64,000 bases of DNA from Octopus vulgaris (GCA_951406725.2 OX597823.1:53196001-53260000); one strand, 5' to 3'; shown: positions 10,211 through 50,347, counted from the first letter of the stretch. Notes: a model not told the origin generated them from the sequence alone. A program made the numbers and translations.

Positions 10211-10403
10211 TATAGAAGGAGCTTCTACAGGACTAGAACTGTTTCATTCAAGAGAAATCTTCAGGAAGCTTCCTGAAGATTTCTCTTGAATGAAACAGTT
10301 CTAGTCCTGTAGAAGCTCCTTCTATATAATAAATTAATTTTACTCTGCTATGTATTGAGTACCTTATTTACTGTGGTTAACCCCGAATCAACCCGGGACC
10401 TAC
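10211..10403. mobile_element. Penelope-type pLTR-like element with a perfect 116-bp palindrome (10211-10326) carrying an HHR on each strand
   Basis: 58-bp arms are centred on GGAAG|CTTCC (10268/10269). The element is flanked by (TA)n. The same family occurs at 23023-23140. Confidence 0.85.
10267..10317 (+). ncRNA. Type I hammerhead ribozyme (mirror copy on minus strand at 10220-10270)
   Basis: Stem I AGCTTC/GAAGCT; core CTGAAGA; stem II TTC-TCTT-GAA closed by a U.U pair; GAAA; stem III ACAG/CTGT; GUA cleavage triplet. Confidence 0.8.
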
Positions 10404-46355: not shown

Positions 46356-46865
46356 TCCAATTTATTAAAATTTCGTTTTGGCTCTGATATACTGAGTTTG
46401 TGATTATTTTTTTGTTTTTTGTAGCTTATTGATTATTAAAGTCTTTTACGAAGGGGTTATCTAAATTTTATAATGTTATGAAATACTATTTTATAATTCA
46501 AGAAATTTCCACTTCAGTTCATCTATTTGAGGAATCACGCAAGCACTCCCTTCACGCACGCACACGCACACACACGCACACACACACACACACAAGCAAA
46601 CAAACTGTAGGGAATTCTTGTTATTATAAAAGCTTTAGAGAAGAACTTTGAACCTTCTTTTGACTGCATTTTCCTGCTCCCCATAAAGCTCCTACCCATA
46701 TCCCCTGGTATTTGGGTGTACTAGTTTCTGGGTCTTTGCTCGTCATCAGTCTGGAGTAGCATGGCCTGCTAATTGGAGATGCCTATCTAGCCTCTGCAAA
46801 CGTATAAATTTGCTAAAGTTTCTTTTGTTTGATTAGACTGAGAAAATAATCGACACCAGTGAAAA

Positions 46866-47168
46866 TTTACATCCGACGGATATTCTCCTCATTTTGTTTG
46901 TTAACACAACGTTTTGGTTGGTATACCCTCCAGCCTTCTTCAGATGTCTTGAGGAAATTTCGAACCTGGGTTTTCATTCCTAAGGATTTTTTCGATGTTG
47001 TTGTTGTTGTTGTTGTTATTATTATTATTATTATTATCATCATCATCATCATCATCATTATTATTATCATTGTTCAGGTCACTGCTTAGAATCGAACTCG
47101 CAATCTTGGGCTTAGTAGCCCGCACTCTTAACCACTACGCCATATGCCCATAGGCATATGGCGTAGTG
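46866..47168 (-). mobile_element. tRNA-headed short element carrying a minimal HHR, with an inverted 5' end
   Basis: A-box TGGCGTAGTGG and B-box GAGTTCGATTC (47073-47148); (AAT/GAT/AAC)n linker; ACAT-CTGAAGA-AGGCTGG..CCAACC-AAAAC-GTT-GTGT (46904-46947); 16-bp inverted duplication of the 5' end (47133-47168). Confidence 0.75.
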
Positions 47169-47188
47169 CATTTCCATCAACTTTCTTT

Positions 47189-47243
<55 letters not shown>

Positions 47244-47252
47244 ACATATATA

Positions 47253-48512
47253 TCAGGTCATCCCATAAGTTCTGTCCGAATTTTGAATAAAGAAGACAAG
47301 TGATCAAATGTTATATTTAATTGAAATTTAATCATCAATGTACTTTCCCTGATTATCTATGACTTCCTTCCATCTATTTACAAGTTTTTTGTAATCCCTT
47401 CAATGTAAAATTCATTTGGTTTCAAAGCGAAGAAACTCTGAAATGTCAGTTTCGTCCTTCTCCTGGCTTGCAAAAGTTATGTGCCCCAAATAATTCTGTA
47501 AACTACGAAACAAATAGTCTGAAGGAGAAAGGTCGGGAGAAGAAGGTGGATGAGGAATTTTTCCCAACCAAGCGCTTCGATCTTCTGTGGTGTGATTTTT
47601 GCAGTGTCGCACACTGTCCTGATGAAACATCGCTCCTTTTCGATTCACTAAAGCAGGTCTTTTTTTTCTTCAAAACGTGATTCAAACGCTCTAATTGCTG
47701 ACAGTAGATTTGAGCATTGATAGTTGCATTAGGTTCTAACAATTCAAAGTGAATTACTCCTTTGCAATACCACCAAATAGAGAGAAGGATCTTTTCCCAT
47801 GAAGTTCCCTTCTCGGTTGTGGTTGAGCTTTTACCTTTTACCAAGCCACTGTTGACGACGTTTAACATTTCGAAAGAAGATCCATTTTTCGTCACCAGTC
47901 ACAAGTCTGTCCATGAAATGAGTTCGCGAGAAAGGAGAGAACAGTAGATGTTAACTCATGATTTGCTGTTGTTTTCGGACAATTCATGAGGCACCCATTT
48001 TCCAAATTGTTGAAGATGACGATGAACAGTTGTATGGTTTGAACTAAGCTTTATTGCCAATTCTTCAACTGATAATGCAGGAGTTTCTTCAAGTAATGCC
48101 TCAAGGAGCTTATCATCAAACTCAACTGGACGTCCTGTTCGATCTTCATTTTCAAGGCTGAAATCTCCACTTTTGAATTTTGCAAATCATCTTCTGCAAG
48201 TTCTTTCATTCAAGCATTCTTTCCCATAAACTGAATATATGTTTCGAGTCGCTTCGGCCGCAGAGTTTCCTTTTTTTTTTTGTACTCATAAAGCATTATG
48301 TGCCTCAAATGCTCTTTGGATACTTCTATGTTAGAAAGGGTTTTAATCAAAGAAATTTTAATTCTATTATTCTGTAAAATAATATTTAATTATTTTAAAT
48401 GTACACAAATGCATAAAAATAATTTTTAATACCATTATACATTCTAAAATACTATTAAATTTCATTCAATTTTAAAAGAGGTAAAATCGGACAGAACTCA
48501 TGGGATGACCTG

Positions 48513-48513
<1 letters not shown>
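47253..48513 (-). mobile_element. Full-length (1261 bp) but inactivated mariner transposon
   Basis: TIRs TCAGGTCATCCCATAAGTTCTGTCCGA / TCGGACAGAACTCATGGGATGACCTGA, TA TSD, WVPHEL (47980-47997), ILLSIWW and PHPPSSPDLSPSDY. The ORF is frameshifted and the start codon appears mutated. Confidence 0.95.
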
Positions 48514-48608
<95 letters not shown>

Positions 48609-49059
48609 ATATTATAACGAAGACAGTTATACGCAATAAAAAATCAAAACGAAAACGTTCAGTTACTGGGACTGAAGGTGTCAGGTAGCACCTATATTGC
48701 TAGAAATGAGAATGAAAACCCTTAGAACCGCAAGAAAGCACATTTTCATATACTGATAATGGAAATATCCGCCCCATAAGCGAAGGTAGATCACTATACT
48801 AGACTAGCTTCACCCGAAAACTACAAGCTCGTCGAATGGTTTGGGTAAATCCGGACTGTCAGTATATATATTTAACATATAAATTTATGGTTGATTTAGC
48901 AAAATGCTAGTGTGAAAATTTCTAAGGCAGCTATAAGCAATATAAAACCAAAAAGGAAAAATTCACTAATTGTGAGTGAGAGTGCCGGGTAGAACATATA
49001 TTGCTAGAAATAAGAGTAAAATCCCTAAAGGAAGTCAAATATTATCCGAGCTTTCGCCA

Positions 49060-50347
49060 AAACTTTCTATATGTTGGACACAAAGCTCCCAATGCTCGCG
49101 TGCTAAAAGATGATACTCCTGTGGTTATACCTTGATTGCTTCAGTTTTCTTTCTTGTGTTACGAAGTAAAGTGGCCGCTCTATTGGCAGTTTGCACCAAG
49201 AGGAACAGAGATAAGTGATGCGATTTCTCTGGACTGAAAGTATGTCAGGGGAGAAATTTAACATTGGACTTCAGTACGATACGAGGACAGCGTAGAAGTG
49301 TGTATGAGTGAATCAAGAAGATTAAGAATTGTCTGACAAGCGTGAAGCACGAAGAGAGTGTAGAGAGAGCATGACTAAACTAGCTCGAGAGGTGGTTTGG
49401 CGAACCGATAAGTGAACATCGACGAAGTGGCCGTACCAAAAGAGCTTACCGAAGCGCATAAGCGTAATCGTGTGGAGATCTGTCAACGCTTAGGCGACCA
49501 CTATAACGAAGTAGGCGAAGCTTTTTGGGAGAGAATAGCCACAAGAGATAAGGTCTAGCTCTATCACTTTGAATCCAGAATCTATCACAGGAATCCAGAA
49601 GGTAGAGTGTGGATTGGAAACACCCAGAATTGCCAGCGAAAAAGAAATTCAAGACTCAACATTCTGCAGAAAAACTGATGCTTACCATTTTTTGGAACGC
49701 AAAAGGGCCTATTATAGTAAATTAGAAGGGATATTGGGTCTGAAGTCACCAGTGAAGGCTACAGCGAAATTGATAGCCAACAAAATGGCACCACATTATT
49801 TACGTTATTTACATTATTTACATTCGACGGATATTTGTCCTTATCTTGTTTGTTGTTAACACTGTTAACAACATAATGTACATAATTCCTCATCTCTTAA
49901 ATATAGAACTGTAAAATGACACCAGCAATTCGCACCAAACGTCAAGGTCTGTTGTTAAAGCAAGCGTTATTGTTGCACGACGATACGCGTCCACGTATGG
50001 TTACTTACCCCGTGGAAACCATTAAAACATTGGTTTTCGAATTGCTGGAACACCCTGCATACGGTCCAGATCTCGTCCTTTCTGACTATTACTTCTTTAG
50101 GGCGATCAAACATCCTTTACGAGATCGTCGATTTGCTATGGACGAAGGAGTGCAGGAAACAGTGCATAAATGTCTGTGCGACCAGTTGAAAACCTTCTCC
50201 GATGGAATATTCAAGCTTGCAGACTACCAGAAGTGCATAAAAAAGCAAGGAGAATATATCGAAAAATGTTGTGATCGTTGAATCCCTGCTTTTGTTTTAA
50301 TAAATTACTGAAATAAGAGTGCGTGTAATTTTTGCCTTCACCTCGCA
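49060..50347 (+). mobile_element. Degenerate mariner transposon interrupted by a 119-bp insertion
   Basis: ORF 49916-50281 (PAIRTKRQG, LLLHDDTRP, LEHPAYGPDLVLSDYYFF, KCIKKQGEYIEK) and a 3' TIR-like GTAATTTTTGCCTTCACCTCG. The 5' boundary is uncertain. Confidence 0.85.
49794..49912. mobile_element. 119-bp inverted retro-insertion of the HHR-SINE family, with a 12-bp TSD
   Basis: TSD AAAATGGCACCA (49782-49793) / AAAATGACACCA (49913-49924). TTTACAT.CGACGGATATT..TTGTTTGTT matches 46866-46905. Internal fold-back TGTTGTTAACA-C-TGTTAACAACA. Confidence 0.85.

Follow-up and report, generated by a model that had tools for sequence, protein, structure and literature searches.

Penelope-like elements (PLEs) of the Penelope/Poseidon type are described as encoding, in one open reading frame (ORF), a reverse transcriptase (RT) with a C-terminal GIY-YIG domain, with a minimal hammerhead ribozyme lying over the start of the ORF, as in Poseidon from the anole (PMC4209133, PMC11167929, PMC8557442). 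Their copies have a tail at one end only, an inverted 5'-truncated partner and many solo truncated repeats. A family sharing these traits is represented by two copies in a 64,000-nt stretch of the Octopus vulgaris genome (GCA_951406725.2 OX597823.1:53196001-53260000; the window, at its full length). Unlike the Penelope/Poseidon elements in the consulted parts of these accounts, the octopus repeat opens with an apparently tRNA-derived head (A and B boxes) and a microsatellite, and the 5' ends of its copies pile up at this head.

Other systems resemble the octopus unit in part. The Sm-alpha and Sj-alpha repeats of Schistosoma are similar to short interspersed elements (SINEs) and present a type I hammerhead behind an apparent RNA polymerase III (Pol III) promoter, but they are non-coding and tandem, and cleavage by their canonical active hammerhead releases the units (PMC6765202), whereas the octopus unit is part of a protein-coding element and its copies read through the cut. 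Animal retrozymes without long terminal repeats (LTRs) also harbour a type I hammerhead, in short repeats derived from pseudo-LTRs (pLTRs), and the consulted parts of their accounts mention neither a tRNA head nor an octopus case (PMC7229834, bioRxiv 10.64898/2026.07.22.740005). Retrozyme-like tandem arrays are few in the octopus family (L007/L008, L122/L124), most copies being dispersed or inverted and not head-to-tail units bounded by cuts. Cassandra, Helenus and Ajax (TRIMp3) carry a small-RNA-derived Pol III promoter inside their terminal repeat; they are non-autonomous LTR elements whose autonomous partners are argued to need RNA polymerase II (Pol II), whereas the octopus head sits in an autonomous element (PMC10886601). 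By description, not by sequence, the head also recalls the octopus SINEs OK, OR1 and OR2 (tRNA-derived head, possibly from tRNA-Arg, high copy number). These SINEs were reportedly described by Ohshima and Okada in 1994 as tRNA-derived, OR1 and OR2 being said to come from tRNA-Arg.

Hammerheads, tails and inversions of PLEs are already known; what appears to be new is the tRNA-type head in the terminal repeat of an autonomous PLE. A literature search, with repeat libraries and supplements outside its scope, found neither a tRNA-headed autonomous PLE nor a cephalopod hammerhead element. The 2026 octopus repeat annotation and PMC8967140 list Penelope and SINE families, in the parts consulted without detail on tRNA heads or hammerheads, and the consulted parts of PMC4758252 and PMC5786205 contain nothing on PLE-linked SINEs. 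Repbase, Dfam or the Zenodo library named in PMC13282606, for example, may already list the short form as a SINE, with no link to a PLE.

The repeat unit and its autonomous element

At the tandem locus L008, additional sequence lies behind the tail, and a search with this sequence retrieved copies whose tail continues into an open frame and, in L150, into a reverse transcriptase. The RT piece of L150, used as query, gave 150 scored matches. In 20 of 30 RT-selected loci, the head is found on the strand of the RT region and behind it (at 2300-2900), usually followed by the linker and the hammerhead. The order of the element is head, microsatellite, start codon, hammerhead, tail, ORF (RT, GIY-YIG), stop, 32 bp and head again. 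The pLTR flanks the ORF on both sides in L376 and L151, L376 being a natural near-complete copy (body, ORF at 1-2378, head, body).

The longest natural frame (569 aa, L169) gives a weak match to PF00078 (RVT_1; E 2.7e-6, below the curated cut-off). The ORF carries a DKG motif (PADKG), its C-terminus aligns to the PF01541 GIY-YIG region of the homolog P0069, and protein homologs are up to 68% identical; no extra zinc-finger-like linker between RT and endonuclease was seen by eye. The Penelope/Poseidon clade was assigned from motifs alone, using criteria from PMC8557442. A frame running through hammerhead and tail is open in the natural copy L122 and matches the N-terminus of the homolog P0003 (47% identity over 86 aa, E 4e-18). 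Because this frame is conserved in P0003, the hammerhead can be said to overlap the N-terminal codons of the ORF, as it does in the anole. Judged from the sequence, head, linker, hammerhead and tail constitute the pLTR of an autonomous PLE encoding RT and GIY-YIG. Membership in the PLEs is close to certain, and much firmer than the promoter role discussed below. The first-pass annotation had suggested looking for an autonomous PLE sharing the 3' end of the unit, which exists, the tail continuing into the RT/GIY-YIG ORF; its proposal that a PLE enzyme mobilises the unit is likely.

No open frame above 569 aa was found at any of the 150 scored RT matches, and divergence from the majority sequence is 6.1% for head-start copies and 7.0% for ORF-linked copies, so that the burst of the family is probably past. 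Copies extending past the tail (L121-L150) frequently break off within the ORF stub, after 60-74 or 100-123 nt, which suggests further RT start sites.

Where the copies begin and end

The family is abundant. The genome (2.8 Gb, 227 contigs) contains 3054 exact matches to a 31-nt tail motif (control 0), which excludes a chance origin, and 9204 exact matches to a 20-mer across the cut site (control 0). The main copy sample consisted of the first 90 occurrences of the tail pattern on contig C1, with no selection on the 5' end. An inverted segment adjoins 52 of these 90 copies. The tail is present on one end only, as the outer ends of 37 of 45 measurable inverted segments lie at +48..+59. Target-site duplications (TSDs) of at least 10 bp with at most one mismatch flank 31 of 36 tested copies, as against 2% of shuffled pairs. 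A one-ended tail, inversion and TSDs are hallmarks of PLEs (PMC8557442). Copies have their 3' ends at one of two sites, about +58 or +84 relative to the cut, which fits the two internal RT starts of anole Poseidon (PMC11167929).

At the other end, copies that contain the head begin predominantly at its start. Among 55 segments reaching head position +7, 41 end at -20..+7 (sense 26/34, inverted 15/21), a pile-up with p 7e-31 against 0.35% per nt, and inspection by eye of 30 head-anchored loci placed most ends at -8..+3. Exact 20-mer counts reveal the same step genome-wide: 5148 within the head, 896 at 28 nt before it and 563 at 234 nt before it. The drop is 5.7-fold over 57 nt at the head start (about 4-fold after rough correction) vs 1.6-fold over the next 206 nt upstream, and about 83% of head-containing segments (896 vs 5148) lack upstream ORF sequence. 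The step is not a mutation artefact, because 20-mer intactness in 18 ORF-linked copies is similar in the head (10) and at 28 and 234 nt before it (7 and 8), with 5 at the cut.

The hammerhead of the family consists of a CUGANGA and GAAA core, an extra nucleotide before stem II, a G10.1-C11.1 pair and a palindromic 15.2-16.2, with a stem I of 5 bp and an ACGU palindrome at stem III. This architecture matches that of the minimal hammerheads of PLEs, which have a short stem I, an unpaired base before stem II and a palindromic stem III, and show low activity, as dimers only (PMC4209133). As the first-pass annotation had it, the motif is by its predicted architecture a PLE-type minimal type I hammerhead, which belongs to known PLE biology. 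The family consensus has the expected G at position 12 (G 120, A 19, gap or other 5 in 144 sampled segments); the A state fits CpG decay. Of the 144, 106 have T and 31 have A at N7, and 78 retain an intact core. In the fold of L304, stems I and II form, with a z of just -1.12; the stems show solely neutral decay among copies of one family that descend from few masters, and Rfam returned neither a tRNA nor a hammerhead match on two good copies. In 10 of 30 inspected loci (L215, L223, L227-L229, L232, L235, L238-L240), the stem III region is shortened to AAGC before GTGTT; this recurrent variant may define a small subfamily, or the AACGTT palindrome may be a hotspot of deletion. At L008:1430-2390, L122/L124 and L125/L146, units of 250-290 bp comprising hammerhead, tail and ORF stub are repeated head-to-tail and bring together as many as four hammerheads; these arrays could form dimers, and they resemble nascent retrozymes.

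The first-pass annotation proposed that the 3' cleavage product of the hammerhead is reverse-transcribed and integrated, and expected a peak of breakpoints at the GUU cut. In the C1 sample, only 6 of 129 segment ends fall at -1..+6 of the cut (p 0.15), the actual peak being the start of the head. A pattern requiring two non-family bases before the cut was found at 59 places genome-wide, window copy 2 among them. Inspection of 30 of these places gave 7 clear junctions, 2 ambiguous ones and 21 point changes or deletions, which scales to about 53-68 copies beginning at the cut, or 0.6-0.7% relative to the 9204 that read through it. The same design applied at +18 as a control (30 places, 6 clear junctions and 1 ambiguous) gave about 19-23 copies (0.2-0.25%), the cut and +18 anchors being equally common in the sample (60 and 61). 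Cleavage products are a minor template at most. Across about 9,200 exact-match copies, this is a genome-scale readout on the role of a PLE hammerhead: the cut is almost never the 5' end. This is in line with in vitro work in which uncut RNA served as the template (PMC11167929).

The head, the RNA and the proposed mode of copying

The A and B boxes of the head stand at tRNA spacing and the tRNA fold is lost: ARAGORN called the head as a tRNA in none of 30 loci, nor in the window, and the head does not fold better than shuffled sequences. Among 26 distinct tRNA sequences of few isotypes from the same genome, it is closest to tRNA-Arg(TCG), with an alignment z of 6.8 that two other tRNAs equal, so that derivation from a tRNA, and from tRNA-Arg(TCG) in particular, is tentative. 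No match to the head was found in phage records. RNA reads came from two raw-read runs (two of the five organism labels whose runs contain the stretch) and two contig sets. The runs contained 9425 and 6982 reads of the family, about equally from both strands and mostly 85-95% alike, which look like passenger copies in host transcripts; no circular joint appeared among the RNA joints listed. The commonest read differences are A>G and T>C (33 and 22 places, and 38 and 25, in runs X23 and X24 over L304:1251-1892). Such an excess would be expected if inverted copies were A-to-I edited, and is confounded by species and copy differences.

The reading that we consider fairly probable is that the captured tRNA-type head, acting as a promoter of the Pol III type, determines the 5' end of the RNA, and that RT starts in the 5'-proximal repeat yield SINE-like solo pLTRs from uncut RNA. 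From its boxes and from the copy ends, we infer that the head is used by Pol III. The process can be pictured as follows. The RNA of the element would have its 5' end a few bases ahead of the head. The PLE protein, which may be translated from this RNA or stem from Pol II read-through, would bind near the ORF start and begin reverse transcription internally at one of two sites. A start in the 5'-proximal repeat would give a SINE-like copy of about 270 nt extending to the RNA 5' end, and copies that bear the ORF and are gradually truncated would result from a start in the downstream repeat; two starts combined with fold-back would produce the inverted, one-tailed insertions with their 10-15 bp TSDs. 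The template would normally be uncut, as cutting by the hammerhead is predicted to require a dimer or the help of protein, and cleavage would strip the promoter and the predicted start codon. Internal RT starts in vitro and dispensable cleavage are both reported for anole Poseidon (PMC11167929).

A bolder form of this reading, in which Pol III transcribes the whole 3 kb of an autonomous protein-coding PLE, T-run terminators having been purged from its sense strand and SINE-like 5'-end copies being shed, is somewhat unlikely. For the promoter of the main reading, the T runs give weak support for Pol III: the 2961-nt majority sequence has no TTTT on the sense strand (15 TTT runs), and the absence of T4 runs from the ORF has a p of 0.039 under a codon shuffle and 0.003 under a composition null. 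Several observations weigh against a Pol III start at the head. Runs of four G are likewise absent from the 2961-nt majority, and one of two control PLE families has a single T4 run in a 2175-nt ORF (the other has 9 in 3936 nt). The two RNA runs show no pile of starts or ends, in data insensitive to short, non-polyadenylated and 5'-OH RNAs. Pol III RNA has no cap, and its translation is left unexplained. Segment ends come from automated BLAST chaining, not hand curation, and overshoot at fold-backs; junctions at the cut are about three times those at +18 (range 2.3-3.6); and, within the last 520 nt, the strongest local hairpin spans -15..+10 of the head (RNA -9.6, DNA -4.6 kcal/mol), overlapping the head start, where it could stall the RT or fold it back. 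This last point, together with the missing RNA start site, the many head-start junctions that are fold-backs and the inverted ends that cluster in a palindromic stretch at -66..-51 too (9/45), would suit an unlikely alternative: a Pol II or read-through PLE in which a SINE head, taken up behind the ORF at some time, is carried along as a passenger, and the ends arise by RT stalling or snap-back at a GC-rich hairpin. Hairpins of similar strength at head +15 (-9.1) and at hammerhead stem II (-8.4) nevertheless give no comparable drop, the step persists after the rough correction, and the promoter boxes are retained whereas the tRNA stems are not. As a separate observation, the head begins with bases to which those directly preceding it are nearly reverse-complementary (-15..+10), a relation that may be a fossil of the fold-back that joined the head to the ORF end.

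The large share of head-containing segments without upstream ORF sequence would also be expected of an independent SINE with solo units, its own masters and Pol III transcription, mobilised by the PLE protein in trans, and two loci carrying the head, the body and a short ORF stub (L138, L143) could be such masters. This seems very unlikely: between 95 head-start and 37 ORF-linked copies, sets that include loci picked by other searches, no majority base differs (bar one position mixed in both groups) and divergence is similar, and the anole protein needs ORF sequence from further downstream (PMC11167929), which solo copies, ending at the tail, do not have. Because their variants are common to the ORF-linked copies, the short copies are not a separate SINE family; that candidate, and with it the separate SINE or retrozyme of the first-pass annotation, was rejected, head, linker, hammerhead and tail all lying within the autonomous pLTR. 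As for the hammerhead 3' cleavage product as the integrated RNA, the start of window copy 2 at the cut, the excess of junctions there over +18 and the proportion of intact cores speak for it. Against it stand the 9204 read-through copies vs the estimated 53-68 starting at the cut, the dispensability of cleavage in anole Poseidon (PMC11167929), and the lack of an RNA-end pile at the cut in standard RNA-seq, which is insensitive to 5'-OH ends. Moreover, 3 of the 7 clear junctions show GTG microhomology with the inverted head, and the TGTTAACA palindrome adjoins the cut; palindrome and microhomology could be the source of the roughly threefold excess. As the main route this explanation is refuted, copies overwhelmingly reading through the cut, and we regard it as exceedingly improbable.

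SINEs are normally separate parasites that borrow just the tail of a long interspersed element, and autonomous retrotransposons are assumed to depend on Pol II. If true, the bolder Pol III reading would unite a SINE with the element that mobilises it. The SINE-like copies appear to be by-products of internal RT starts, a testable route for the birth of a SINE from a PLE, and it is suggested that some catalogued SINEs of this lineage may be solo pLTRs.

The two copies in the window and other observations

The layout claimed for copy 1 in the first-pass annotation (tRNA-like head, microsatellite, minimal hammerhead with A at G12) is present in the sequence (Table 1). Its hammerhead reads, in order, GACAT, CTGAAGA, an extra A, stem II, A at the G12 position (46915), AAAC, GTT, the cut and GTGTT. 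Besides G12A, two further changes lie in the 3' strand of stem II, and this copy does not adopt the fold of the family motif (fold z 0.57). The 16-bp fold-back at its 5' junction was absent from that annotation; similar short fold-backs occur at the head starts of other head-anchored copies.

Copy 2 likewise has the anatomy claimed for it: a 119-bp insertion (49794-49912) in a mariner whose frame resumes on the far side, flanked by a 12-bp TSD with one mismatch. The first base of its minus-strand segment (49862, with GTGTTAAC) is the first base past the cut, and the fold-back occurs at that point. The outer end of the inverted segment belongs to the +48..+59 class, and copy 2 is a typical case of the insertions of the family.

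Table 1. Positions of the features of copies 1 and 2, counted from the first nucleotide of the window
Feature	Position	Strand	Basis or remark
tRNA-like head, copy 1	47149-47075	minus	A box and B box from sequence; likely internal promoter and RNA 5' end
A box of copy 1 head, TGGCGTAGTGG	47142-47132	minus	Sequence
B box of copy 1 head, GAGTTCGATTC	47099-47089	minus	Sequence
(AAT/GAT/AAC)n microsatellite linker, length variable	47074-46999	minus	Sequence; in ORF-linked and short copies alike
Predicted PLE ORF start codon	46975-46977	minus	Inferred; frame passes through hammerhead and tail
Minimal type I hammerhead, copy 1	46948-46903	minus	GUU cut between 46908 and 46907; damaged copy
Post-cut body of copy 1, stops without tail	46865-46902	minus	BLAST
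16-bp inverted fold-back copy of the 5' part of the head, at the 5' junction of copy 1	47153-47168	plus	BLAST 16/16
Left TSD of copy 2	49782-49793	plus	11/12 identical to 49913-49924
Inverted tail-less segment of copy 2	49794-49862	minus	First post-cut base to about +58, extra AAATAATGT units
Fold-back on TGTTAACA palindrome beside the cut site, copy 2	49863-49873	plus	22/23 self-complementary
Sense 3' piece with PLE tail (about 30 bp, one end only), copy 2	49874-49912	plus	Tail runs on into ORF N-terminus in L121-L150
Right TSD of copy 2	49913-49924	plus	11/12 identical to left TSD

A functional link between the two copies was rejected. They inserted independently, and a separate mariner lies in between. 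This degenerate mariner-like element (47248-48516) has terminal inverted repeats of 34-36 bp. Elsewhere in the window, a near-perfect 80-bp palindrome with 39-bp arms lies at 10229-10308, for which Rfam gave a generic hairpin below threshold; in the Rfam scan of the whole window, microsatellite noise was present among the 150 of 536 matches listed, and a repeat search of the window was likewise dominated by microsatellites.

The genome also contains a second, young PLE family (L371-L373, for example G000:C17:6330500-6338500). It has no A/B-box match and carries a hammerhead-like CTGATG...GACGAAAG before the ORF, which the hammerhead pattern did not call. Its open frame spans 1312 aa, and its copies, dozens of them, are nearly identical. 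This family may still be active.

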